From positions 1 through 39,224 of the forward strand of contig JBDRBZ010000123.1 in NCBI GenBank assembly GCA_043822175.1: DNA of 39,224 nucleotides, given 5' to 3'. This document shows positions 21,843 through 35,178 of the stretch, piece by piece. Under the pieces are notes generated by a model. That model did not search any database. It worked only from the letters and a program-made list of their open reading frames with translations, and had not been told where the DNA came from. The translations under genes and the position numbers were made by a program. The stretch is from Candidatus Omnitrophota bacterium. GTDB lineage: Bacteria; Omnitrophota; Gorgyraeia; JABMRN01. Each line of letters begins with the position of its first letter. Positions within the stretch are counted from its first letter, which is position 1.

Positions 21843-23312
21843 ATGCTGAATTTTCTGCGTAAAAAAAAGGTCCAGAAACGCATCCTTGTGGCCCTTGCGT
21901 TCATTATCATCCCGGCGTTTGTGCTGTGGGGGGTGGGCAGCATGGGCAAAAAGACCATAGCGGGCAGCCGGTACGTCGGCGACATAGACGGCAAAGCCGT
22001 ACCGATAGACGACTTTCTGAAGGCGCGCCGGGAGACGGAGATACAGCTTATACTGCATTTTGCCGGTAATAAGGACATGCTGGACAAACTGATAGAGGAC
22101 CGGGCGCTTGTTAACGGCATGACGTGGGACAACCTTATCATGCTGGACGAGGCCAGGCGCGACAATGTCAGGGTTAGCGACGGAGAAGTCGTGGCCTTTA
22201 TAACCAACAACCCCCTTTTCGTGAGGGACGGCGCGTTCGACGGAAAATTTTACGACTATGTAATAACCCAGAATCTCGGCATTACCACGAGAAGTTTCGA
22301 GGAATGCATAAGAAAACTGCTTATCATAGCCAGGGAAAAGGAAAACATACTGAAAAACGTCGGCGTTTCGGATGATGAGATACTCGAGGCCTACAGGCGG
22401 GACAACGAAAAGGGGAGGATATCGTACATAAGCGTGGACAGGGAGGCGTTTTTGCCGGAAGCCGGCACATCACGGGAAGACATTGATAAATATTACCGGG
22501 AGCATATCGATGATTTTACGGCGCCGGAACGGGCTGATCTTGTGTGCATGAAGTTTCCGTACGCGAGCCTTATGGAGAAGGAATTTATGATGCGCGGGGT
22601 GAACGGCATTTACGGGGAGATAAAGAAAAACCCCGGCCCCGGCAAATTCCGCGAGATAGCCGCCGAAAACGGGATTACCGTTGAGGATATCGGGGCTCTG
22701 CCCAGGGGGACGCCTCCGGATGAGTTCAAGTTCGACGCCAAAACATATGACGGCATATTTAACATGAATCCGGGAGACAACGCCATACTGTCGGACGACG
22801 CGGCCGGGGGGTATATTTATCTGATCGAGATAAAATCAAAAACCCCAAAGACGGTAAAAAGCAGGGAAGATGCCGAACCGGTCATAAGGGCTGAATTAGG
22901 CCGTGAAAAATCCGACGTCCTGGCCGGACAAAAGGCCGAAGAAATATACAATCGCATTTCCGGAGGCGGCATCTCCATGGAAGACGCCGCCCGGACCTAC
23001 GGGCTGAAAAGGCAGGAAACGGATTTTATCACGAGATTCGATTACCTCGAAGGTGTCGGCGAGGCGGTCCTGATTCTGGATAAGGTCATGACATTGTCTC
23101 CCGGACAGTCAAACGGCCCGTTCAAGACCAGGAAGGGGTACATAATCGCCCGCCTGGACGAGTTCAAGGCGATTGATACGGAAAAGTTTTCGCGTGAGAA
23201 AGAAAATTACAGCGCGAAGGTGCTGTCTATTAAAAAAATGAAAGCGCTGAAAGACTGGTTTGCGGTTATTTCGTCAAAGGCCCGGCTGGCCATAGACCTG
23301 AAGCGCATCTAA
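21843..23312 (+). CDS. PpiD/SurA-like periplasmic chaperone (peptidyl-prolyl isomerase family)
   Basis: 489 aa. The N-terminal membrane anchor MLNFLRKKKVQKRILVALAFIIIPAFVLWG is typical of PpiD-like proteins. I cannot confirm an intact parvulin domain by eye. Confidence 0.55.
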   Translation: MLNFLRKKKVQKRILVALAFIIIPAFVLWGVGSMGKKTIAGSRYVGDIDGKAVPIDDFLKARRETEIQLILHFAGNKDMLDKLIEDRALVNGMTWDNLIMLDEARRDNVRVSDGEVVAFITNNPLFVRDGAFDGKFYDYVITQNLGITTRSFEECIRKLLIIAREKENILKNVGVSDDEILEAYRRDNEKGRISYISVDREAFLPEAGTSREDIDKYYREHIDDFTAPERADLVCMKFPYASLMEKEFMMRGVNGIYGEIKKNPGPGKFREIAAENGITVEDIGALPRGTPPDEFKFDAKTYDGIFNMNPGDNAILSDDAAGGYIYLIEIKSKTPKTVKSREDAEPVIRAELGREKSDVLAGQKAEEIYNRISGGGISMEDAARTYGLKRQETDFITRFDYLEGVGEAVLILDKVMTLSPGQSNGPFKTRKGYIIARLDEFKAIDTEKFSREKENYSAKVLSIKKMKALKDWFAVISSKARLAIDLKRI

Positions 23313-23343
23313 CCTGCCGCATAAATCCCGCTTATCTATTATA

Positions 23344-23372
23344 TTGACACGCAATTACTTATACTATAAAAT
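23344..23372 (+). promoter_or_regulatory. Candidate promoter upstream of the micro-ORF and hisG
   Basis: TTGACA (23344-23349), a 17-nt spacer, then TAAAAT (23367-23372). Confidence 0.45.
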
Positions 23373-23405
23373 CATAATAAGCGGAAAAACGCGATAATAA
23401 CGAAA

Positions 23406-23546
23406 ATGTCACCCAAAAAGCCGAAATCGCTGAAAATAAGAAAAAAATGGCGGATCAATCCGCGCACCCGCGTTAAAAAGAGCCGAATGGTATATTCACG
23501 GAAACAAAAAAGCACACTGGTACAGGAAGAATTGAGAGGGGCATAA
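23406..23546 (+). CDS. Tentative 46-aa highly basic micro-ORF (not in the ORF track)
   Basis: ATG 23406 to TAA 23544-23546. Translation: MSPKKPKSLKIRKKWRINPRTRVKKSRMVYSRKQKSTLVQEELRGA. It fills the promoter-to-hisG leader and ends 3 nt before the hisG ATG. There is no clear SD and I recognise no family. The A-rich sequence could yield Lys codons by chance. Confidence 0.3.
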   Translation: MSPKKPKSLKIRKKWRINPRTRVKKSRMVYSRKQKSTLVQEELRGA

Positions 23547-23549
23547 ACA

Positions 23550-24419
23550 ATGAAGCTGAAATTAGGCATTCCAAAGGGCAGCCTGCAGGAGTCAACAATC
23601 AGGATATTCAAAAAGGCGGGATTTAACGTACATGTTTCGCAAAGAAGCTATTTCCCGTCCATAGACGACAACGATATAGAGGCGGTTTTATTCAGGGCTC
23701 AGGAGATGTCAAGATATGTGGAAAACGGCCTCATAGACTGCGGAATAACGGGTAATGACTGGATACTTGAGAATAATTCTAAAGTCGTAAGGGTTGCGGA
23801 CCTTGTTTACGCGAAGCAGAGCATAAAACCTGTGCGGTGGGTGCTGGCCGTGCCCGTGAAATCAAAGATAAAAGGGGTAAAGGGACTGCACCGCAAGCGC
23901 GTAGCGACCGAACTGGTCAACGTAACCAGGGCATATTTCAGAAAGAAGAAGGTCCTGGCGGACGTGGAATTCAGCTGGGGCGCGACCGAAGTGAAGACCA
24001 AAATGGGCATTGACGGCATCGTTGAACTGACCGAGACAGGGGCCTCGTTGAGGGCGAATGACCTGCGCATAGTGGATACTGTCTGTGAATCCACGACGCA
24101 GTTTATCGCGAACAAAACCGCCTGGAATACCCCGTCAAAAAAGAGGAAAATGGAGGAAATCGTACTTTTGCTCAAAGGCGCCATTATGGCAGAAGACAAG
24201 GTCGGGCTGAAGATGAACGTAAATTCGGCAAACCTTGGAAGGGTGCTGGCCATCCTGCCGGCCATGAAGAAGCCCACCATATCGCACCTGTCCGAAAAAG
24301 GGTGGTTTGACGTGGATACGATTATCAGCGAGGCAGACGTAAAGAAGCTGATCCCCGGGCTAAAAAAGGCCGGGGCCCAAGGTATAATCGAATATCCCTT
24401 GAATAAAGTCATTGACTGA
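23550..24419 (+). CDS. hisG: ATP phosphoribosyltransferase, long form
   Basis: 289 aa. Shows [25 protein letters not shown] and a C-terminal regulatory domain. The RBS GAGAGGGG lies 8 nt upstream. Confidence 0.92.
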
Positions 24420-24437
24420 TGAGGAGGTGAGAAAAGG

Positions 24438-24533
24438 ATGCCCTGCGGGAGAAAGAGAAAAAGACACAAGATGGCGACACATAAAAGGAAAAAAAGGCTG
24501 AGAAGAGACAGACACAAGAAGAGAATCAGATAG
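24438..24533 (+). CDS. 31-aa Arg/Lys-rich protein resembling ribosomal protein bS22 (AURKAIP1/COX24-domain family); not in the ORF track
   Basis: GAGGAGGTGA (24421-24430) lies 7 nt before ATG 24438; the stop is TAG 24531-24533. Translation: MPCGRKRKRHKMATHKRKKRLRRDRHKKRIR. The pattern RKRK.KM..HK.RK.LRR.R matches my memory of bS22 from actinobacterial and Bacteroidota ribosomes. Confidence 0.6.
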   Translation: MPCGRKRKRHKMATHKRKKRLRRDRHKKRIR

Positions 24534-24536
24534 GAT

Positions 24537-26090
24537 ATGCGGGAAGGCGTTATCAAAATATGCGTTTTCTTGTGCGCGTTTTTTCCGTGTTTTAACGGTC
24601 CCGGAACATTGTGCCGGGCTCTGGAATTTCACGAAGCCGCGGCCGCGGCTGGCGATTCTGTCAAGGTTTCCCAAAAAGAAACAGAAGAGGAGCGTTTTGC
24701 CGACTGCCTTGCCCATTACACGATGGGCCTTATTTACGACAACCAGAGGGACACACACAAAGCGATAGCCGAATATAAAAAGGCGCTTCGCTGTAACGGA
24801 TGGAACTCCTACGTAAGGCTGAGGCTGGGCATAGATTATCTCGGGACCGGAAAAACGCGCCAGGCAATCCGGCAGTTTGAGCGCGTGAAAAAACTGGATC
24901 CTGACAACGCGGCGCCGTATCTCATCCTGGCCGTTGTGTATATGTCGGAAAAAAAGCATGACATGGCCAGAAAAGAATATGAAAGCGTCATAAAAAAAGA
25001 CCCCGGCAACGCGAAGGCGCTTTTTTCTCTCGCAGACCTCATGGTGATGCAGAGAAAATACAAAGAGGCGGTAGGGGTATACGAAAAAATAATCGCCTCT
25101 GAACCCGATTCGCCGCTCGGGCATTTCAACCTCGGTGTCGTATATACCAGGCTGAACCGGGTTGATGACGCTATAGCGCAAATACGCAAAGTGACCGAGC
25201 TCGAGCCCCGGTATCTTGAGGCGTATATCACACTGGGGCTGCTTTATGAGATTAAGGGGGATACCGAAAACTCTGAGCAGGCGTATCTGTCCGCGCTGAA
25301 AATCGATGCGCTCAATGCGGCTGTCTATAACCGCCTCGCTCAGCTTTATTACGGCGCGGGACAAACCGAAAAGGCAGTTTCCATTTACAGGAAGCTGGTG
25401 CACCTGTACCCCGGCGAACTGGAGAACTATATTCTACTCTATATGGCATACATGAAAGAAGGCCAGAGCGGTCCGGCGATAGATGTTTTGCGTAAAGCCG
25501 AAAACAGGGGATTCCAGGGGGTTAAGCTTAACAGAATGCTGGGGTACGCTTACATGATTTCCGGCGACAACGATGAAGCTGCCGCGTATTTGGGCAAGGT
25601 GCTTGCCGTAAATCCGGAAGACGCGTGGAGTTATTTTTATCTCGGCGTGATTTACGACAGGAAGGGCGACAGGGCAAATGCCGCGGGCGCGTTCCGGAAA
25701 GCGATCGGTTATGACGGGACGATGCACGAGGCGTACAATTATCTGGCGTACATGTATGCCGAGGAAGGCGCCAATCTGGATGATGCCGAAGATCTGGCAG
25801 TTAAGGCCCTTAAAATGGATCCGGGCAATGCCGCTTATCTTGACAGCCTGGGATGGATATACTACAAAAAGGGCGATATGGAGGGCGCGGTGAGAGAGCT
25901 GGAACAGTCCGTAGCCCGCGAAGGGGAGGATCCGGTAATAAGGGATCACATGGGCGATGTATACCATGCCCTGGGCATGGATGACACAGCCCGCGTCCAA
26001 TGGGAAAAATCACTTGAGCTTAAACCCGGACAGGATGAGATAAGAAACAAAATAAACGCTTTAAGCGACGTTCTGGAGAAAGCTGAATAG
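24537..26090 (+). CDS. Secreted or periplasmic tetratricopeptide-repeat (TPR) protein
   Basis: 517 aa with a hydrophobic N-terminal signal-like segment. This is followed by about 12 tandem 34-aa TPR-like units (recurring A..Y..AL...P....A...LG pattern). Confidence 0.8.
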   Translation: MREGVIKICVFLCAFFPCFNGPGTLCRALEFHEAAAAAGDSVKVSQKETEEERFADCLAHYTMGLIYDNQRDTHKAIAEYKKALRCNGWNSYVRLRLGIDYLGTGKTRQAIRQFERVKKLDPDNAAPYLILAVVYMSEKKHDMARKEYESVIKKDPGNAKALFSLADLMVMQRKYKEAVGVYEKIIASEPDSPLGHFNLGVVYTRLNRVDDAIAQIRKVTELEPRYLEAYITLGLLYEIKGDTENSEQAYLSALKIDALNAAVYNRLAQLYYGAGQTEKAVSIYRKLVHLYPGELENYILLYMAYMKEGQSGPAIDVLRKAENRGFQGVKLNRMLGYAYMISGDNDEAAAYLGKVLAVNPEDAWSYFYLGVIYDRKGDRANAAGAFRKAIGYDGTMHEAYNYLAYMYAEEGANLDDAEDLAVKALKMDPGNAAYLDSLGWIYYKKGDMEGAVRELEQSVAREGEDPVIRDHMGDVYHALGMDDTARVQWEKSLELKPGQDEIRNKINALSDVLEKAE

Positions 26091-26121
26091 CAGGCAAAAA
26101 ACGGAAGGAGCTGCACAAGAC

Positions 26122-26970
26122 ATGAGAGAAGACGCGACCGCACCCGATATCGGCACGCTGAAAAAAAAGGCCGTAGAAATACGGAAAGATATACTGAAAA
26201 TGCTTTACACGGCCGGGAGCGGCCACCCCGGAGGATCACTGTCGCTGGTGGAAATACTCGCGGCGCTCTATTATTGCGAGATGCGGTACGATCCGAAAAG
26301 GCCGGCCTGGAGGGAAAGGGATAAGCTGCTTTTGTCCAAAGGCCATGGATGCCCGGCTTTGTACGCCGTGCTGGCGGACAGAGGGTTTTTCCCGAGGCAG
26401 GAACTCTGGACATTGAGAAAACTCGGTACCCGGCTTCAGGGGCACCCCCAGCTGGGGCTTCCCGGGCTTGAGATATCGAGTGGTTCGCTCGGACAGGGGC
26501 TTTCCATCGCGAACGGCATGGCCCTGGCAGACAGGATGGACAACGTGAAAGCGCGAGTTTACTGCATAATGGGTGACGGCGAGACTAATGAAGGGCAGGT
26601 ATGGGAGGCGGCCATGACGGCCAGCCATTATAAATTGGATAATTTATGCGCGATTATAGACCATAATAAGATGCAGATCGACGGGTTCTGCTGCGAGGTG
26701 AAAGATATGACGAATTTCTGCAGCAAATGGTCAAGCTTCGGATGGCATGTAATCGAGGCGGACGGCCATGATTTCAGCCAGCTTATGGACGCGTTTGACA
26801 GGGCAAGGCAGGTCAAGGGCAAGCCGCAGGTGATAATGGCGCATACAATAAAGGGCGCGGGTGTTTCGTTCATGGAGAACAAGGTGAAATGGCACGGTGT
26901 CGCGCCGAAGAAAGACGAGTATGAGGCGGCGATCAAAGAACTGGACGGCGCCCGCTCCAAGCTTGGGTAA
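26122..26970 (+). CDS. Transketolase, N-terminal (TPP-binding) subunit
   Basis: 282 aa. Shows GSGHPGGSLS, SKGH..PALYA and GDGE.NEGQVWEA. It stops where split transketolases stop. Confidence 0.92.
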   Translation: MREDATAPDIGTLKKKAVEIRKDILKMLYTAGSGHPGGSLSLVEILAALYYCEMRYDPKRPAWRERDKLLLSKGHGCPALYAVLADRGFFPRQELWTLRKLGTRLQGHPQLGLPGLEISSGSLGQGLSIANGMALADRMDNVKARVYCIMGDGETNEGQVWEAAMTASHYKLDNLCAIIDHNKMQIDGFCCEVKDMTNFCSKWSSFGWHVIEADGHDFSQLMDAFDRARQVKGKPQVIMAHTIKGAGVSFMENKVKWHGVAPKKDEYEAAIKELDGARSKLG

Positions 26971-27012
26971 AAGCGAAGACGCGGGGCAGGACATAAAAAG
27001 GAGGCCACAACA

Positions 27013-28623
27013 ATGAGAAGATTTATGATGTATCTCAAGATGTACAAGATGATGATTATCGTCGCGGCGGTTGTCATCATCCTGCTCATAGGCACGGTTA
27101 TAGGGCTGATGTCTCTTGAGTCTTTTTACAGGAAGCTTACACTGGCCACGATGCCGCTTCAATTCCTGATGGCGGGTATACATGCCGGCATATTTGTCTT
27201 TATGTATCTTATTTTTCTCAGAGGGGGCTTTGCCAAGCTCGACAAGGCGCCCATAAGGGGAAAGGATATCGAAATCAGATGGAAGGACGTGATCGGCATG
27301 GACGACGCCAAGCAGGAGGCCTGGGAAGTGGTGCAGCTTATACGCGACAGGGCGCGGCTAATGGCGGTCGGCGGCAAGGTCATAAAAGGCCTGCTCATGG
27401 TCGGGCCTCCGGGATGCGGCAAGACATATCTGGCAAAGGCCATTGCCACGGAGGCGCGGCTGCCTTTCATATCGATGTCGGGAAGTGAATTTACGGAAAT
27501 ATTCGTCGGTGTGGGCGCGTCGCGGGTGAGGAAACTCTTCCAGAAAGCGCGCGATTACGCGTACGGATACGGCGGATGCATCATATTCATAGACGAACTT
27601 GATGCCATAGGGCGCGTGAGGCAGCTTTCCTGGGGCGGCGGCGGCCAGGAGACGAACGCCACGCAGAACCAGCTCCTTGTCGAGCTGGACGGTTTGAGGG
27701 AAAAGGGAGGCAATATAGTGGTCATAGGCGCGACAAACGCGCCCGAAGACAGCCTCGACAAGGCGCTTTTACGGCCCGGCAGATTTGACAGAAAGATATA
27801 CGTCAACTTCCCGGGGCTCGAGGACAGAGAAAAAATCTTCGCGTATTACCTGAGCAAAGTTCAGACGGATGACAGCATAGATGTGGGGCGCCTGGCCAGG
27901 AGGACTGTCAATAAATCACCGGCCGATATCGCCAACGCGGTCATGGAAGGCGCGCTGATCGCGACACGGAAAAAGAATGACAAGGTGAGCATGAAAGAGC
28001 TGAGCGAGGCATTCGAACGGATAGACCTCGGCATAAAACACAAGATCAGCATGACAAAAGAAGAAAAAGAGATGACGGCGTATCATGAATCCGGGCATCT
28101 TATCGTGACATATCTGCTGCACCCCACGGACGATGTGTTTAAGGCTTCGATTATACCGCGGGGTTCGGCTCTGGGGTATGTATATCCTACGCCCAAGGAA
28201 GAATCCCATTCCGCTAAAAAAGATAAAATACTGGCCGACATTAAAGTCGGCGTAAGCGGGTATGTGGCCGAAAAGCTTGTGTATAACACATCGACTGCGG
28301 GCGTGTCCAAAGATTTCAGTATGGCCATGGAAAAGGCGCATGTTATGGTTTGGTGCCTGGGCATGGGCGAATCCGGATACGTGGGCGATTACACGAGAAT
28401 ACCGAGCGAACAGCTTTCGGACGACATCAAACAGGCATTGAATAAAGACACGGGAAAGATACTCTCGGACTGCGTGTCCGATGTCGACGCGTTGCTCAAA
28501 GCGGAAAGGCCGCTCCTCGACCGGTTCGCGCAGGAGCTCCTCACGAAAGAGGAGCTGGAATATGACGAGATAGAGGCTATTTTCAAAGAATACAATAAGA
28601 CAAAACGTCCGTTTTCGACATAA
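27013..28623 (+). CDS. FtsH-family AAA+ zinc metalloprotease paralogue with a minimal extracytoplasmic loop
   Basis: 536 aa. Has Walker A GPPGCGKT (27403-27426), Walker B IIFIDELDA, the SRH/Arg finger LLRPGRFDR, and HESGH (28084-28098). The two N-terminal TM helices are separated by only ~11 aa (ESFYRKLTLAT). Confidence 0.85.
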   Translation: MRRFMMYLKMYKMMIIVAAVVIILLIGTVIGLMSLESFYRKLTLATMPLQFLMAGIHAGIFVFMYLIFLRGGFAKLDKAPIRGKDIEIRWKDVIGMDDAKQEAWEVVQLIRDRARLMAVGGKVIKGLLMVGPPGCGKTYLAKAIATEARLPFISMSGSEFTEIFVGVGASRVRKLFQKARDYAYGYGGCIIFIDELDAIGRVRQLSWGGGGQETNATQNQLLVELDGLREKGGNIVVIGATNAPEDSLDKALLRPGRFDRKIYVNFPGLEDREKIFAYYLSKVQTDDSIDVGRLARRTVNKSPADIANAVMEGALIATRKKNDKVSMKELSEAFERIDLGIKHKISMTKEEKEMTAYHESGHLIVTYLLHPTDDVFKASIIPRGSALGYVYPTPKEESHSAKKDKILADIKVGVSGYVAEKLVYNTSTAGVSKDFSMAMEKAHVMVWCLGMGESGYVGDYTRIPSEQLSDDIKQALNKDTGKILSDCVSDVDALLKAERPLLDRFAQELLTKEELEYDEIEAIFKEYNKTKRPFST

Positions 28624-28624
28624 G

Positions 28625-29614
28625 ATGAGAAATATTTTTCGCCTTTCGATTATCCTGATGTTGATTTTCGCCCTGGCAGGATGCAAGGCCACATTTCCTA
28701 AAGAGACCCTGGCCCAATCCATAGCCGCGTTGTGCCTGGAAGAGTATGGCCTGGAAATAAAGGCCGAGGTTATCGGCCAGACGCTGGCGGTTTACCTGCC
28801 TCTTAAGAGCCTGCTCGATCTATCCTTCGGCCTGAGCGAGGAGGCGCAGGATGCCATTCAGGATGTGCTCCTGTCGGCATCCCGGGTTGTCTTGAGTACG
28901 GACGCGGATATCCGATTTTATTGCGTGATAGCCCAGGATATAAGGCTGCCCGAACTGCAGGTTATAGTCATAAAATCGGTCGAAGACGTGAAGCGGGCGT
29001 ACTTTAACGACATATCGCGCGGCGAATACCTGAAAAGGACGATATTCGATATCAACATCAATCCCCAGTCAAGGAAAGAGCAGACCATAAAGGACGTGTT
29101 TAAGAAGTATAAACTGGATCCTGAGTGGCAGGACCAGATTCTCGAGGAGTTTTTCAGGAATACCCCCCTCGCGCTTAAGGATTTCGGCTACTGGAACGAC
29201 AGGTTCTACGTAAAGAATATCACCCTTCCCGAATTCATAGCAGAGCAGATAGTTTACAGGATAAGGATGCATTTTCGCGAGAACAAGGAGCTGGCCAGGA
29301 AGTACGTCGTAAAAGCGGTTAACGCGAGGTATGAGGAAGAAGGCAACGCGCGGCAGTTCCGCGTGGATTTTGACATCAAGCTGAACGAAGTGCTGAAGGT
29401 CCTCGGGGAGGCCGGCGGCGACGATGGAGTTATCTTCGGGAACGTGATGGAGGAAATAGCGGACTGCGTGTACGGGTATAAATTTGAGGACTTTGATTCG
29501 GTGAAATGCGTCGATGCCGCGAGCGGCAAAAAACTCACCGTCTCCAAGAATGAGATATACGCGCTTAAGAAAAGAAAGATAAACATGGATAACGTCCTGG
29601 CCGGTTTAAGCTGA
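28625..29614 (+). CDS. Orphan lipoprotein
   Basis: 329 aa. The signal peptide has the lipobox LAGC (28673-28684, Cys20). The ATG lies 1 nt after the FtsH-like stop. I recognise no family. Confidence 0.7.
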   Translation: MRNIFRLSIILMLIFALAGCKATFPKETLAQSIAALCLEEYGLEIKAEVIGQTLAVYLPLKSLLDLSFGLSEEAQDAIQDVLLSASRVVLSTDADIRFYCVIAQDIRLPELQVIVIKSVEDVKRAYFNDISRGEYLKRTIFDININPQSRKEQTIKDVFKKYKLDPEWQDQILEEFFRNTPLALKDFGYWNDRFYVKNITLPEFIAEQIVYRIRMHFRENKELARKYVVKAVNARYEEEGNARQFRVDFDIKLNEVLKVLGEAGGDDGVIFGNVMEEIADCVYGYKFEDFDSVKCVDAASGKKLTVSKNEIYALKKRKINMDNVLAGLS

Positions 29615-29646
29615 TCCGGGACCGCGGTAAAAGGAGAAAAGACAGC

Positions 29647-30657
29647 ATGACAGTAAGAAAGCTTGAGAAGAATGAGGCAAAACAGCAGGCGCTCCCTACA
29701 AGGGACGGTTTCGGGAAAGGGCTCCTGGAGCTCGGGGCAAAAGACAAAAACGTGGTGGTCCTTTCGGCTGACCTTACCGATTCGACGCGCGCGGCCTGGT
29801 TCAGGGACGCGTATCCGGACAGATTCCTCGGCTTCGGCGTAGCCGAGCAGGATATGTTCGGCGCGGCCGCGGGCCTGGCGCTGCTCGGGAAAATACCGTT
29901 CGCGTGCACGTTCGGCGTTTTCGCCAGCGGAAGGGCGTGGGATCAGATCAGGATCTCATTGGCATACATGAATTTAAATGTGAAAATCGGCGGCACGCAC
30001 GGCGGTATTTCCGTCGGCCCTGACGGCGCGACCCACCAGGCGCTTGAGGAGATCACCCTTATGCGCATGCTGCCCAACATGACGATCGTCGTGCCCTGTG
30101 ACGCGGTCGCGGCGAAAAAGGCAACGCTGGCCGCTGCGGCGTTAAAGGGGCCGGTGTACATAAGATTGGGGCGAAGCGCCGTGCCGGTCATAACCCGGGA
30201 AAACGATTTTTTTAAAATCGGGAAAGCCAACGTTCTCAACAAAGGGGATGACATAACCGTCTTCGCGTGCGGGCAGGTGGTATATGAGGCGCTCGCGGCC
30301 GCGAAAATTCTCAAAAAAGAGGGAATTGAAGCGAGGGTGATCAACCTTCATACGCCGAAGCCGATTGACAGAAGCGCCATTATCAAAGCGGCGCGCGAGA
30401 CAGGCGCCATAGTCACGGTAGAGGAGCACACGCTTTACGGCGGGTTCGGCAGCGCCATAGCCGAGGTCGTGATAGAGAAATGCCCGGTTATAATGAAGAT
30501 GATAGGGGTGAAAGATACTTTCGGAGAATCAGGCGAACCCGAAGAACTGTTCGAGCACTTCGGCCTTACGGCCAAACATATTGTGCAGGCTGCCCGGCAG
30601 GCCATTAAAGAGAAAAGGCCGCGCTTGCCGGAGAGGCCGCGAAAGAAAAGAAAATGA
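29647..30657 (+). CDS. Transketolase, C-terminal (pyrimidine-binding) subunit
   Basis: 336 aa. Shows FGVAEQDM.GAAAGLA and GGTH.G.S.G.DG.THQ. Confidence 0.92.
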   Translation: MTVRKLEKNEAKQQALPTRDGFGKGLLELGAKDKNVVVLSADLTDSTRAAWFRDAYPDRFLGFGVAEQDMFGAAAGLALLGKIPFACTFGVFASGRAWDQIRISLAYMNLNVKIGGTHGGISVGPDGATHQALEEITLMRMLPNMTIVVPCDAVAAKKATLAAAALKGPVYIRLGRSAVPVITRENDFFKIGKANVLNKGDDITVFACGQVVYEALAAAKILKKEGIEARVINLHTPKPIDRSAIIKAARETGAIVTVEEHTLYGGFGSAIAEVVIEKCPVIMKMIGVKDTFGESGEPEELFEHFGLTAKHIVQAARQAIKEKRPRLPERPRKKRK

Positions 30658-31535
30658 AATCCCTCACATTATGGGCGCCGGCTAAGGTTAATCTGTACCT
30701 GAGGGTGAAGAGAAAGCGGCCGGACGGGTACCACGACATAGAGACGCTCTTTGAAAGAATAAATATAAAGGACCGGATAACCGTTTCCGTGACAAAAGGG
30801 CGGATGACCGTGACAACATCGGGCATCCCTGTCCCGGCCGGCAGAAAAAACATCTGCTATAAGGCCGCGGCGCTTTTAAAAAAGGGATACGGCGTCAAAT
30901 CGCGGGTCAAAATACATATTGAGAAGCGAATACCGGTTGCGGCCGGTCTTGGCGGCGGCTCGAGCGACGCGGCGGGTGTTTTAAAGGCGCTTAACAGGCT
31001 GTGGAAGCTGTCTATCGGGGAGGACGCCATGATGCGCATCGCGGCCCGCGTAGGGGCTGACGTACCCTTTTTCATTAAAGATGTCTCTTTTGCGCGGGGT
31101 TCGGGTATCGGTGACAGGCTGATTCCCGTAAAATCCAGAACAGTGATCTGGCATCTGGTTGTAACCCCGCCTATCAGGACGCTATCAGGTACAATATATA
31201 AGATGTATGATAAGAAGGGGTGTTTGCCCTTGACAAGGCCGGGGGGTACTGATAAAATGAAAACCCCCAAAAATCTTATAAGCAACAGGGGACAGCTCAG
31301 TTCATTCCTTTGCAATGATTTGGAGGAGACCGCAGTCAATATGTGTCCGCTGATAGGGCGCATAAAGGCGGAAATGTTAAGCGCGGGGGCGTTAGGCGCC
31401 CTTGTTTCGGGCAGCGGCCCCAGCGTATTCGCTGTATATCGGACACGAAAGGAGGCACTGAAGGGGAAGCGTTTATGTATGGAGCGCCTTCCAGCGGACA
31501 ACGGATGGCGCGTGTTCGTGGCGAGAACATTCTGA
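30654..31535 (+). CDS. ispE: 4-diphosphocytidyl-2-C-methyl-D-erythritol kinase
   Basis: 293 aa. Shows APAKVNLYLRV and the GHMP-kinase motif PVAAGLGGGSSDAA. There is an ATGA overlap with the upstream gene. Confidence 0.92.
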   Translation: MKSLTLWAPAKVNLYLRVKRKRPDGYHDIETLFERINIKDRITVSVTKGRMTVTTSGIPVPAGRKNICYKAAALLKKGYGVKSRVKIHIEKRIPVAAGLGGGSSDAAGVLKALNRLWKLSIGEDAMMRIAARVGADVPFFIKDVSFARGSGIGDRLIPVKSRTVIWHLVVTPPIRTLSGTIYKMYDKKGCLPLTRPGGTDKMKTPKNLISNRGQLSSFLCNDLEETAVNMCPLIGRIKAEMLSAGALGALVSGSGPSVFAVYRTRKEALKGKRLCMERLPADNGWRVFVARTF

Positions 31536-31557
31536 GATCGAGAAAGGAGAATGAAGC

Positions 31558-32022
31558 ATGGAGATCACCGAAGTACGTGTTTTTCTGAAGGAGGGGCCGG
31601 ATAAGAAGCTTAAGGCTTATGCGACGCTGACATTCGACAATTGTTTTGTGGTAAGGAATGTAAAGGTTATTCAGGGCACGAAGGGGCTTTTTGTGGCGAT
31701 GCCTTCGAGAAAAATCAGGGAGGCGTGCCCGAAGTGCCATTATAAAAATACGGCGAGAAGCAGATATTGCAGTCAATGCGGATCGGCCCTTCCGCAGCAG
31801 CCGCAGCAGCAGAATGCGGCCGTGGCGAGGCAGGCCGAACATAGGGATATCGCGCATCCCATAACACTTGAGTGCAGGGAGATGATTCAGAGAAAGGTGC
31901 TTGAGGCTTATGATGCCGAGGCGGCGAAAGAGCCGAAGGCAAGGGCGCGGTTTGAGGATGAGGACAGCCCGGTTGCGGAAGAGAACTTCGACGAGATAGA
32001 AGGCAGGGATATAGCGCTGTAA
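31558..32022 (+). CDS. spoVG: SpoVG-family protein with an inserted zinc ribbon and an acidic C-terminal extension
   Basis: The SpoVG core is present: MEITEVRVFL...LKAYATLTFDNCFVVRNVKVIQGTKGLFVAMPSRK and RDIAHPIT..REMIQ. CPKC (31726-31737) and CSQC (31768-31779) lie in the loop between FVAMPS and RDIAHP. The protein is 154 aa, against about 95 aa for the canonical form. Confidence 0.85.
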   Translation: MEITEVRVFLKEGPDKKLKAYATLTFDNCFVVRNVKVIQGTKGLFVAMPSRKIREACPKCHYKNTARSRYCSQCGSALPQQPQQQNAAVARQAEHRDIAHPITLECREMIQRKVLEAYDAEAAKEPKARARFEDEDSPVAEENFDEIEGRDIAL

Positions 32023-32031
32023 AGACGCCGT

Positions 32032-32105
32032 TGCCCGGTAGTGTAACGGTAGCACAGCAGCTTTTGGAGCTGCGCGTCCTGGTTCGAATCCAGGCTGGGC
32101 AACCA
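32032..32105 (+). tRNA. tRNA-Gln (anticodon TTG)
   Basis: 74-nt cloverleaf folded by hand: acceptor TGCCCGG/CTGGGCA (U1-A72), D arm GTGT/GCAC, anticodon arm GCAGC-TTTTGGA-GCTGC (anticodon 32064-32066), T arm CCTGG-TTCGAAT-CCAGG, with an encoded CCA. Confidence 0.92.
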
Positions 32106-32231
32106 AATTTTGCGAAGAAAAATTTGTCCTGGGGGCATGAATATAGCGAAGCAAAATTTGAAAAACGTGAAAAATAGAAATTTGAAAATAGACCGAAATT
32201 GATTCTCAGTAGTTATTGAATTTTAGGGCAT

Positions 32232-33512
32232 ATGAAAAAAAACATCGCATGTCTTATTCTGGCGGCGGGAAGGGGGACGAGGATGAAGTCCTCTCTGCCG
32301 AAGCCGCTTCATGAGATCCATTCCAGACCCATGCTGGGGTATCTCATTGATACGGTGCGGGCGCTTGGAATAAAAAGGATCGGGCTCGTGTTCGGGCATG
32401 AGGCCGGGAAGCTCAGGCGCGTTTTTAAGGGGTTTGACGTGGTCCTGCAGCGGAGGCCCCTGGGCAGCGGCGATGCCATAAGGTGCGCAAAGGCTTATTT
32501 CCGCGCCTATTCCGGTGATATACTGCTGCTTTATTCGGATACGCCGCTTCTTAAGGCAGAAACATTGAAGGCCCTGATTGAGACGCACGCGAAAAACGGC
32601 AACAAATGCACGCTTCTTACCGCGGTAATGAGCGATCCGAAAGGGTACGGCAGGATATTGCGGGATGATTCGGGCAGGGTAAAGAAAATAGTCGAGGAGA
32701 CGGACGCGGCGTTTTATGAACAGGCTATCCGGGAAATAAACGTGGGGGCTTATATGCTTGACAAAAAAACCCTTTTTGAAAATATAGACAGGATAAGGCC
32801 TAACAGGCGGAAAAAGGAGTTTTTTCTGACCGATATAATAGAGATATTCGGGAAGCAAAATCTCAAGATGGGTTTCCATACTACGGATGACCCTACGGAG
32901 GCGCAGGGCGTGAACTCCAGGGTAGATCTTGCACTGGCAAATGAAATAGCCGGGCGAAGGGTAACGGATGATCTCATGGCGCAAGGTGTAACCATAGAGG
33001 ACCCGTCCACGACCAGCGTGGACAAGGACGCTAAAGTCGGGCAGGATACGGTGATTTATCCGCATACTATCATCGAGAAAGACGTTGTCATAGGGCGCGA
33101 TTGCCGCATCGGCCCGTACGCCAGGTTAAGGCCCGGTACGGTCCTGGACGCTAAAGTCGAAGTGGGCAATTTTGTCGAGCTTGTCAGAACAAGGGTGGGC
33201 GCGGGGTGCAAGATAAAGCACATGACCTATCTCGGAGACGCGGTACTCGGGAAAGGCATCAACATAGGCGCGGGGACCATTACGGCTAATTATGACGGCA
33301 AGGATAAAAACAGGACTGAAATTGGGGATAACGCCTTTATCGGGGTCGGGGCTATACTTATAGCGCCGGTGAAAATAGGACGCGGCGCAGTCGTCGGGGC
33401 AGGCAGCGTGGTTACAAAGGGCCGGAATGTCCCGGCTGACGCCACGGTCCTGGGGGTGCCGGCAAAAATATACAAAAAGCGGACAAAAAATAAAAGCCGG
33501 AGGGAAAAATGA
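32232..33512 (+). CDS. glmU: Bifunctional UDP-N-acetylglucosamine pyrophosphorylase / GlcN-1-P acetyltransferase
   Basis: 426 aa. Shows LAAGRGTRMKS at the N-terminus and C-terminal left-handed beta-helix hexapeptide repeats. Confidence 0.9.
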   Translation: MKKNIACLILAAGRGTRMKSSLPKPLHEIHSRPMLGYLIDTVRALGIKRIGLVFGHEAGKLRRVFKGFDVVLQRRPLGSGDAIRCAKAYFRAYSGDILLLYSDTPLLKAETLKALIETHAKNGNKCTLLTAVMSDPKGYGRILRDDSGRVKKIVEETDAAFYEQAIREINVGAYMLDKKTLFENIDRIRPNRRKKEFFLTDIIEIFGKQNLKMGFHTTDDPTEAQGVNSRVDLALANEIAGRRVTDDLMAQGVTIEDPSTTSVDKDAKVGQDTVIYPHTIIEKDVVIGRDCRIGPYARLRPGTVLDAKVEVGNFVELVRTRVGAGCKIKHMTYLGDAVLGKGINIGAGTITANYDGKDKNRTEIGDNAFIGVGAILIAPVKIGRGAVVGAGSVVTKGRNVPADATVLGVPAKIYKKRTKNKSRREK

Positions 33513-34447
33513 CTGATAAACTAAAGATATTTACGGGCAGCTCGAACAGGCCTGTCGCCGAAGGTATATGCAGGACCTTGAGGATCAATATGGGCAGCGC
33601 CGATGTCGAGAGATTCAGTGACGGTGAAATACGCGTAAAGGTTAACGAGAATGTGAGGGGGGAAGACGTTTTTGTGGTGCAGTCTACCTCAAGCCCGGCG
33701 AACGACAACATCATGGAGCTCCTGATAATGATCGACGCGCTTAAGCGCGCGTCGGCGTCACGGATAACCGCGGTACTGCCTTATTTCGGGTACGCCAGGC
33801 AGGACAGGAAAGATCAGCCGAGGGTGCCCATTACGGCAAAACTTGTGGCCAATATCCTTACGCGGGCCGGGGCCAACAGGGTGCTTACCGTTGACCTGCA
33901 TGCGGGCCAGATACAGGGCTTTTTCGATATCCCCCTGGATCACCTCTACGCGGTAAACGTATTCGTGGAATATTTCGAGAAGATGAAAATGACCAATCTT
34001 ACCATCGTATCTCCGGATGTCGGGGGCATAAAAATGGCGCGTGCCTACGCCAAGAGGTTAAACGCCAACCTGGCCATAGTCGATAAGAGGCGGATAGACG
34101 ATAAAAAGACAGAGGTCATGAATATAATGGGTGAGGTTGAGGGACAGAACGTGGTGATAGTCGATGATATAGTGGCCACGGCCGGCAGCCTTATCGAAGC
34201 CGCCCAGGCAGTGAAAAACGCCGGCGCCCTTGACGTTTACGCGGCGATAACTCACCCTGTCTTAAGCGGGCCGGCCATAGAGAGGATACGCTACAGCGTC
34301 CTTAAGAAAATGCTGACCACGGATACGATAAAGATCGAGGAGTCAAAGGCGACCGAGAAAATAGAGGTAATATCCATTGTGCCCCTTCTGGCCGAGGCCA
34401 TAAGGAGGATACACAATGAGCAGTCTGTAAGCATGTTATTCGATTAA
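33509..34447 (+). CDS. prs: Ribose-phosphate pyrophosphokinase
   Basis: 312 aa. Shows LPYFGYARQDRK and the PRPP-binding loop VIVDDIVATAGS. There is an ATGA overlap with glmU. Confidence 0.96.
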   Translation: MTDKLKIFTGSSNRPVAEGICRTLRINMGSADVERFSDGEIRVKVNENVRGEDVFVVQSTSSPANDNIMELLIMIDALKRASASRITAVLPYFGYARQDRKDQPRVPITAKLVANILTRAGANRVLTVDLHAGQIQGFFDIPLDHLYAVNVFVEYFEKMKMTNLTIVSPDVGGIKMARAYAKRLNANLAIVDKRRIDDKKTEVMNIMGEVEGQNVVIVDDIVATAGSLIEAAQAVKNAGALDVYAAITHPVLSGPAIERIRYSVLKKMLTTDTIKIEESKATEKIEVISIVPLLAEAIRRIHNEQSVSMLFD

Positions 34448-34470
34448 ATCGCGAAACGGAGGTAATGATA

Positions 34471-35178
34471 ATGGAGAAGGTAATATTGACCGCGGAAGTG
34501 AGACAGGAAACCGGCAAATCACATGCCAAGCATCTCAGGCGGAACAATCTTGTGCCGGCAGTATGTTACAGGGGCGGCAAGGAGTGCGTGAGCCTTAAGG
34601 TGGGCGCAAAAGCCCTTTATCAGGCCCTGCATACGAAGGCCGGGGAAAACGTGCTGATCACGCTGAACGTGGAAGGGGCTAAGACAAAAAAGGAACGCAC
34701 TGTCCTGGTGAAGGAAGTGCAGGTAGACCCCATACGCGGGGATCTGCTGCACGTTGATTTTAACGAGATATCACTGACCGAAAAAATAAAGGTAAAAGTC
34801 CCTGTTACGACGCACGGCGAGGCAAAGGAAGTGCAGAGGGAAAGCGGGGTTGTCGAACACACTGTATGGGAGGTCGAGGTGGAATGCCTGCCGACCAACA
34901 TTCCGGAAAAAATACAGGTGGAGATCGAAGGCATGAAAATAGGCGACACTGTCCATATCGGCGATCTTAAAGCCCCTGAAGGGGTTAAAATTCTGGGAGA
35001 TCCGGAGCTTATCGTGCTGATTGCCAAGGCGTCAAAGGTAGAAGTCGTGGAGGAAGTGCCTGTGGAAGGTGAGGCCGAAGAGCCTGAAGTTATAGCCAAA
35101 GGCAAGAAGCCTGAAGAGGAAGGCGAGGAAGAAGACGCGGAAGCGGCGCCTCAGGAAAAGAAGGATAAAAAGGAATAG
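34471..35178 (+). CDS. rplY: 50S ribosomal protein L25 / general stress protein Ctc, with an acidic tail
   Basis: Shows EVRQETGKSHAKHLRRNNLVPAVCYG and a two-domain Ctc form. ATG 34471 lies 8 nt after GGAGG (34458-34462). The track's ATG 34465 is only 2 nt from the SD. Confidence 0.88.
   Translation: MEKVILTAEVRQETGKSHAKHLRRNNLVPAVCYRGGKECVSLKVGAKALYQALHTKAGENVLITLNVEGAKTKKERTVLVKEVQVDPIRGDLLHVDFNEISLTEKIKVKVPVTTHGEAKEVQRESGVVEHTVWEVEVECLPTNIPEKIQVEIEGMKIGDTVHIGDLKAPEGVKILGDPELIVLIAKASKVEVVEEVPVEGEAEEPEVIAKGKKPEEEGEEEDAEAAPQEKKDKKE

Follow-up and report, generated by a model that had tools for sequence, protein, structure and literature searches.

The window analyzed here is a stretch of 39,224 nt (positions 1 to 39,224 of contig JBDRBZ010000123.1), from a Candidatus Omnitrophota bacterium (GenBank assembly GCA_043822175.1). 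In it, the two genes of a split transketolase, tktN and tktC, are separated by a gene for a paralogue of the membrane protease FtsH (ftsHp) and a lipoprotein gene (lipo). The layout had been described in an initial annotation of the DNA as four same-strand genes with gaps of 42, 1, and 32 nt, and a six-frame listing of open reading frames reproduces the coordinates of all four plus-strand genes exactly. The distance from tktN to tktC is 2676 nt. As we argue below, this is likely an old insertion of a conserved protease-lipoprotein unit into the spacer of a split transketolase, within a housekeeping array. The interval is made up as follows:

26122-26970, plus strand: tktN, the N-terminal, thiamine-diphosphate-binding subunit of the split transketolase, 282 aa (PF00456, E 5.7e-54)
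26971-27012, plus strand: the 42-nt tktN-ftsHp spacer, putative upstream insertion junction, with the Shine-Dalgarno sequence GGAGG of ftsHp
27013-28623, plus strand: ftsHp, a paralogue in the FtsH family of AAA+/M41 proteases, 536 aa (PF00004 and PF01434)
28625-29614, plus strand: lipo, the lipoprotein gene, 329 aa, with a lipobox; its ATG lies 1 nt past the ftsHp stop codon
29615-29646, plus strand: the 32-nt lipo-tktC spacer, putative downstream insertion junction, with the Shine-Dalgarno sequence AAGGAG of tktC
29647-30657, plus strand: tktC, the subunit with the pyrimidine-binding and C-terminal domains, 336 aa (PF02779 and PF02780)

The two transketolase polypeptides, one with the N-terminal domain (PF00456) and the other with the C-terminal ones (PF02779 and PF02780), jointly span a full transketolase: tktN covers positions 13-283 and tktC positions 312-625 of the 627-position model NF004559. 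In the genome from which the window comes, tktN is the sole TktN match and the other TktC-like match is one 633-aa, Dxs-like frame, so both halves would be needed. The two genes are neither adjacent nor overlapping in the window.

The same order, tktN-ftsHp-lipo-tktC-ispE, was found in all eight sampled clade relatives whose locus spans both tkt genes; these belong to the window's family, to its order, and to four further families. Among 48 loci from other Omnitrophota species, 37 are complete and show the split order, and 10 more are cut by contig ends and consistent with it. It should be noted that this sample is biased toward the window's clade, because the search patterns came from close relatives. 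Loci with the split order include those of Ca. Omnitrophus magneticus and Ca. Makaraimicrobium thalassicum, and overall the order was seen in at least six families. Judged by this recurrence, in the complete loci and in every one of the clade relatives, the arrangement is not a product of chance.

Outside the clade the picture is different, and it bears on which arrangement came first. In 15 genomes of the same class, the order is hisG-TPR-tktN-tktC-ispE-spoVG-glmU-prs (TPR, tetratricopeptide repeat), with tktN and tktC adjacent; the ftsHp-lipo pair lies elsewhere in 12 of these genomes and was not found in three. Four of four genomes of another class likewise have tktN next to tktC, on contigs other than those that carry ftsHp-lipo. 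The genes of the paralogous tkt pairs of three genomes are also adjacent. A maximum-likelihood tree of concatenated TktN and TktC, rooted on the paralogous pairs, places the lineages with adjacent genes at the base and gathers 14 rows with the split order, plus genome G018, into one nested clade (support 100/97). Given adjacency in the class, in the other class, and in the paralogues, together with this nested position on a rooted tree, the sequence comparison indicates that adjacency is ancestral and the split order derived, which agrees with the proposal of the initial annotation that a protease-lipoprotein module had inserted into a transketolase operon. The comparison of related genomes that was suggested there thus gives a two-part answer: the interrupted order is conserved in the clade, and the uninterrupted one is found elsewhere.

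A tree in which all rows with the split order, plus G018, are held as a single clade is not rejected (p-AU 0.096), and the insertion appears to have happened once, or at most two or three times. It would also be old, because TktN identity within the split clade drops to about 61-65%. In G018, which is 100% complete, there is no ftsHp and no lipo, and tktN and tktC are adjacent with a spacer of ~115 nt (contig G018:C9, locus L123, 7662-9546); its position in the tree and its gene content fit loss of the insert. Incidentally, the G018 spacer is longer than that in most genomes with adjacent tkt genes and could be a deletion scar. A search for flanking repeats or traces of mobile elements around the insert gave short matches of chance size only, and a search for Rfam elements in 23300-32300 found none besides a tRNA-Gln. 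In the sequence of events that we propose, a two-gene unit would have moved into the short tktN-tktC spacer in the ancestor of a large clade, and then stayed. The interruption may have been tolerated because tktN and tktC each have their own ribosome-binding site and would assemble after translation, as other split transketolases do.

The first of the two inserted genes encodes a protease that, judged by its motifs, is catalytically intact. Its AAA+ module (PF00004, E 1.3e-39) keeps Walker A, Walker B, the FVG pore loop, and the second region of homology (SRH; the arginine-finger region), and all 15 of the sequences aligned conserve the segments GPPGCGKT, FIDELD, FVGVG, and LLRPGRFDR. In the M41 domain (PF01434, E 1e-37), the residues H358-E359-x-x-H362 (HESGH) and D434 are invariant. 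Two hydrophobic segments, at residues ~13-33 and 49-70, were located at the N-terminus by a simple hydropathy calculation rather than a dedicated predictor. Between them lies a conserved 15-residue loop, SLESFYRKLTLATMP, too short for a folded periplasmic domain (about 70-80 aa), and residues 1-96 have no Pfam match. Against the equivalog model TIGR01241, the protein scores 460.6 bits, below the 600-bit cut-off, and the match begins at profile position 144. An LESF-like motif in the N-terminal region recurs in 120 of 120 retrieved relatives; all of those with a named organism are Omnitrophota, and most are annotated at NCBI as "AAA family ATPase."

FtsHp is kept in addition to an ordinary FtsH. 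A canonical copy, cut at a contig start and 37-42% identical to FtsHp, is encoded elsewhere in the window genome, and 41 of 41 relatives also have one (39-45% identical). In 12 full-length canonical FtsH sequences from Omnitrophota, ~75 aa lie between the two helices, and Walker A comes ~80 residues later than in FtsHp. From this comparison we infer that FtsHp has lost its own periplasmic domain.

The second inserted gene encodes a predicted periplasmic lipoprotein. Its N-terminus, MRNIFRLSIILMLIFALAGC, is a signal peptide with the lipobox L-A-G-C20 at its end, whose cysteine, Cys20, is shared without exception by the 19 aligned relatives. Across the family, 163 of 246 members that start with M have a lipobox after a hydrophobic stretch; the position after the cysteine may be occupied by G, S, A, E, K, or another residue. 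The remaining invariant positions are E40, T53, R87, S91, D105, D121, R138, F204, and Y285, and the N-terminal half is the better conserved one. In other classes, the protein occurs in a longer form that carries an insert.

Comparisons with known proteins led to no assignment. The lipoprotein belongs to no Pfam or NCBIfam family; a Pfam search of 19 family members with E up to 1 gave no consistent match and no SPFH/Band-7 domain; and its profile has no match among PDB sequences. The AlphaFold2 model, built from a 19-sequence alignment, has a predicted local distance difference test score (pLDDT) of 91.4 and a predicted template-modeling score (pTM) of 0.85, and comprises two alpha/beta domains, each with the element order helix-strand-strand-helix-strand-strand. 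When this model was compared with the PDB using Foldseek, the best E was 0.011 and TM-scores were <0.25, the matches being to generic alpha/beta domains and, at low probability, to CamS-type lipoproteins. The model thus suggests a distinct fold. An origin of the two domains by internal duplication was considered and rejected: alignment of the N- and C-terminal halves with hhalign gave a probability of 0.2%, and the halves are alike only in the order of their secondary-structure elements.

Among 1.84 billion representatives, the family accounts for 829 clusters (50% identity). Wherever its members carry a name, it is "hypothetical protein," and a single one of them comes from outside Omnitrophota, under the label of a Deltaproteobacteria metagenome-assembled genome. 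A divergent family match also occurs on a contig labeled "uncultured Clostridia bacterium" (L082, CAYYAU010000017.1, 381-1541). Both the Clostridia and the Deltaproteobacteria labels are probably those of mislabeled or misbinned metagenome bins.

The two genes behave as a unit across the phylum. In every locus examined (20 class loci, 47 from the genome collection, 17 from other classes, and three further class loci), lipo directly follows ftsHp on the same strand. In a phylum-wide sample of 201 genomes, 174 match the lipoprotein profile and 173 match ftsHp, with presence of ftsHp scored at E up to 1e-125, a threshold that leaves canonical FtsH (about 1e-95) outside. Five genomes were discordant. 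In three of these, ftsHp is present beside lipo but broken or cut by contig ends; in the other two (family f38), ftsHp is followed by a gene that hhalign places in the lipoprotein family as a diverged member (probability 97.6%, E 4.7e-12). After correction, both genes are present in 176 genomes, neither in 25, and one alone in none. The genomes with neither gene are spread over several families, and many are >95% complete. We give this table without a statistic because related genomes are not independent. Three genomes have a tandem duplicate of ftsHp upstream of a single lipo (L029, contig G029:C30, 7439-10927; L052, 4-3268; G102:C78, 18356-21626); the two copies in G029 are almost identical on the tree.

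The initial annotation had suggested, from the 1-nt spacing, that the two inserted proteins act together, and had proposed co-occurrence of the lipoprotein family with this FtsH clade as a check. It added that unrelated loci with no co-occurrence in related genomes would speak against the idea. Unrelated loci are indeed seen, as described below, but the co-occurrence is strict, and the kept adjacency together with the joint presence and absence across the phylum strongly supports a partnership at the level of gene content. The lipoprotein might instead be a substrate of the protease, or an unrelated envelope protein that is merely on the same transcript, and its lack of similarity to known FtsH modulators would suit such an explanation. 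We think this improbable: adjacency is strict at all loci examined even though the neighborhoods change, the match of presence and absence is perfect in the 201 genomes with joint loss in several families, many lineages have the lipo start codon touching or overlapping the ftsHp stop, and such consistent joint travel is rare for unrelated genes.

Where the pair sits depends on the lineage. In the window's clade it is inside tkt; in other loci of the class it is found in varied places, with no neighbor conserved across them. In another class, the order uvrA-X-ftsHp-lipo-hrcA-grpE-dnaJ was found in 13 of 16 loci (L083-L098; for example, L083, 3044-12272), in which X is a 160-aa protein with no Pfam match. 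The hrcA-grpE-dnaJ context links the pair to heat-shock chaperone genes and thus to protein quality control. Two further configurations occur within the array itself. In G038 (L023), the order is hisG..ftsHp-lipo-tktN-tktC-ispE, with the pair directly upstream of tktN, and in G025 (L032) and G039 (L034) it is hisG-ftsHp-lipo-ispE, with tkt elsewhere. The three array configurations may be local rearrangements of one old insertion, or may reflect a benefit of residing in a strongly expressed array.

These placements also bear on whether the four genes are kept together on purpose, with co-expression tying the protease and lipoprotein to transketolase and pentose-phosphate flux, or with a transketolase subunit as the substrate. 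One could point to the stable and tightly spaced order across at least six families, and to the presence of the pair near tkt, or in the same array, in G038, G025, and G039 as well. Yet G025 and G039 carry the pair in an array without tkt, 12 genomes of the class have it far from an intact, adjacent tktN-tktC, and in the other class it lies by hrcA-grpE-dnaJ with tkt on different contigs. Moreover, 25 genomes are without the pair, and the three of these that were examined (G018, G023, and G035) keep tktN and tktC intact and adjacent. We therefore regard purposeful linkage as very unlikely. The coupling to pentose-phosphate enzyme stoichiometry that had been suggested initially is not supported, since most of the phylum has the pair at sites independent of tkt, and these gene neighborhoods reveal no functional link between the pair and transketolase or sugar metabolism.

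Within the window, the four genes, with their neighbors, are probably read as one transcript. A consensus scan found no promoter-like or terminator-like site on the plus strand in any of the three gaps, in agreement with the initial annotation. Across 23300-34600, the counts are close to those in shuffled sequence (13 promoters vs. 9.7±3.4; 20 terminators vs. 13.7±4.1), and weak promoter-like sites occur within tktN (26614) and tktC (29959). The median gaps among relatives are 30 nt for tktN-ftsHp (n=45), 5 nt for ftsHp-lipo (n=80), and 30 nt for lipo-tktC (n=49), with start sites picked by a heuristic; in some relatives, gaps reach 100-330 nt. The lipo ATG has no Shine-Dalgarno sequence before it and is separated from the ftsHp TAA by one base, as expected where translation re-initiates. 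Thus, lipo is probably coupled to ftsHp in translation.

Internal promoters before ftsHp and/or tktC would instead make separate transcription units, in which the transketolase halves are expressed independently of the pair. Omnitrophota promoters may follow rules of their own, and the wide gaps in some relatives and the weak sites at 26614 and 29959 could be read in this way, but the window gaps contain no promoter-like or terminator-like match and the clade medians are just 30, 5, and 30 nt. On balance, separate units seem unlikely, although less so than purposeful linkage to transketolase.

Returning to the insertion of a protease-lipoprotein unit into the transketolase spacer, several points weigh against it. 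One split-order genome, G033, is placed near the nested clade without resolution, and the tree as drawn needs three state changes. The FtsHp tree, rooted on canonical FtsH, has a very long root branch, and the history is not resolved from it. The two other configurations in the array could mean that residence there is an advantage in itself, or that the rearrangement history was more complex. The single-transcript part is drawn from spacing and from a weak consensus scan, and the consensus may not cover Omnitrophota promoters. Finally, the evidence for a partnership of protease and lipoprotein is of one kind, the adjacency and co-occurrence of their genes.

As for what the pair does, we suggest that FtsHp and the lipoprotein act in membrane-protein quality control, in which the lipoprotein would be a dedicated FtsHp partner on the outer face of the inner membrane, serving as a modulator, an adaptor, or a cap. 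A conceivable origin for such a partner would be gene fission, by which the periplasmic domain of FtsH became detached and is now supplied in trans. It is precisely this domain that FtsHp lacks, and export would bring the lipoprotein to the same compartment, but when the lipoprotein profile was compared with a profile of the periplasmic domain of canonical Omnitrophota FtsH, the probability was <=3%, FtsH periplasmic-domain structures are absent among the fold matches listed, and a 329-aa protein of two domains contrasts with an FtsH domain of ~75 aa. A fission product is thus hardly credible, and homology with the FtsH periplasmic domain was rejected on the profile-profile result. Functional replacement of the domain is not affected by these tests. 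A more specific, and tentative, possibility is a two-component protease in which the lipid-anchored lipoprotein docks on the conserved 15-residue loops of the FtsHp hexamer and, although its fold is unrelated, provides in trans the periplasmic cap that is part of the same chain in canonical FtsH. If this were true, the two-component protease would be a second, separately regulated machine for membrane quality control in these small-genome bacteria, tied to the heat-shock regulon.

Two aspects seem to us of general value. Across the phylum, a second FtsH without a periplasmic domain is kept beside the ordinary one and never without one lipoprotein; this co-occurrence points to a dedicated partner and offers a concrete pair for expression and testing. 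There is a gap in annotation here, in that the lipoprotein family is "hypothetical" wherever it is named and the protease is usually just "AAA family ATPase." The other aspect concerns transketolase: an obligate two-subunit enzyme apparently tolerates two unrelated genes between those for its subunits, and has done so while at least six families diverged. The persistence of the split order suggests that tight linkage of the subunit genes is not indispensable. Literature searches on FtsH in Omnitrophota and on FtsH without a periplasmic domain found nothing relevant. Transketolase, the FtsH family, and the housekeeping array are known already; new, in the literature searched, are the Omnitrophota-wide FtsH paralogue that lacks the periplasmic domain, with its obligate lipoprotein, and the stable interruption of tkt by that unit.

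The insert sits in a long unidirectional run of genes, which in the window reads ppiD, hisG, TPR, tktN, ftsHp, lipo, tktC, ispE, spoVG, tRNA-Gln, glmU, prs, ctc, pth, rpsF, ssb, rpsR, rplI, and dnaB. The genes that directly flank the transketolase interval are:

24537-26090, plus strand: a TPR-repeat protein that matches many TPR Pfam families; it lies between hisG and tktN in 15 of the 17 tkt loci of relatives that were examined
30654-31535, plus strand: ispE, with GHMP kinase domains and a 4-nt overlap with tktC; the first gene of the conserved array ispE-spoVG-tRNA-Gln-glmU-prs-ctc-pth

The TPR protein, a conserved array member in the class, has a hydrophobic, cysteine-containing N-terminus, MREGVIKICVFLCAFFPCFNGPGTLC, and may be exported or lipidated. 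SpoVG (31558-32022) carries a zinc-ribbon insertion, with PF13240 and PF12773 matches within its PF04026 match.

A housekeeping array of the form ispE-(purR)-spoVG-glmU-prs-ctc-pth is known from Bacillus subtilis. The genes downstream from tktC in the window are identical to it in kind and order, whereas the Omnitrophota array is extended upstream by hisG-TPR-tkt and, in addition, contains the inserted protease-lipoprotein pair.

With canonical FtsH (TIGR01241; MEROPS M41; PF00004 and PF01434, with PF06480 between the helices), FtsHp shares the two N-terminal helices, the AAA+ module (Walker A and B, the aromatic pore loop, and the arginine fingers), and the M41 zinc-protease domain, in which HExxH is joined by a third acidic ligand. 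It differs in that it is without the periplasmic domain, scores below the equivalog cut-off, is retained beside a canonical copy, and is always followed by the lipoprotein gene. In Escherichia coli, HflK and HflC are membrane-anchored periplasmic modulators of FtsH, and the concept would be the same here: a protease of the FtsH type that works with partners at the periplasmic face of the inner membrane. Unlike HflK and HflC, however, the lipoprotein has no SPFH/Band-7 or other recognized domain, is predicted to have a lipid anchor instead of a membrane helix, and is encoded by a gene that strictly adjoins that of the protease; moreover, FtsHp is without the periplasmic domain, the part of canonical FtsH that probably contacts HflKC. 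A second parallel is NlpI, the TPR lipoprotein that serves as an adaptor of Prc, a soluble periplasmic serine protease. In both cases a lipoprotein would be dedicated to one protease, but FtsHp is an AAA+ zinc protease that sits in the membrane and has its active sites in the cytoplasm, and its lipoprotein is not a TPR protein.

For the interrupted enzyme itself, the closest comparison is with the split transketolase of Carboxydothermus hydrogenoformans, which assembles as a functional heterotetramer (PMC13663882). In both, the enzyme is made as an N-terminal and a C-terminal polypeptide that carry the usual domains, but in the window's clade two unrelated genes intervene and put 2.7 kb between the genes for the two halves.

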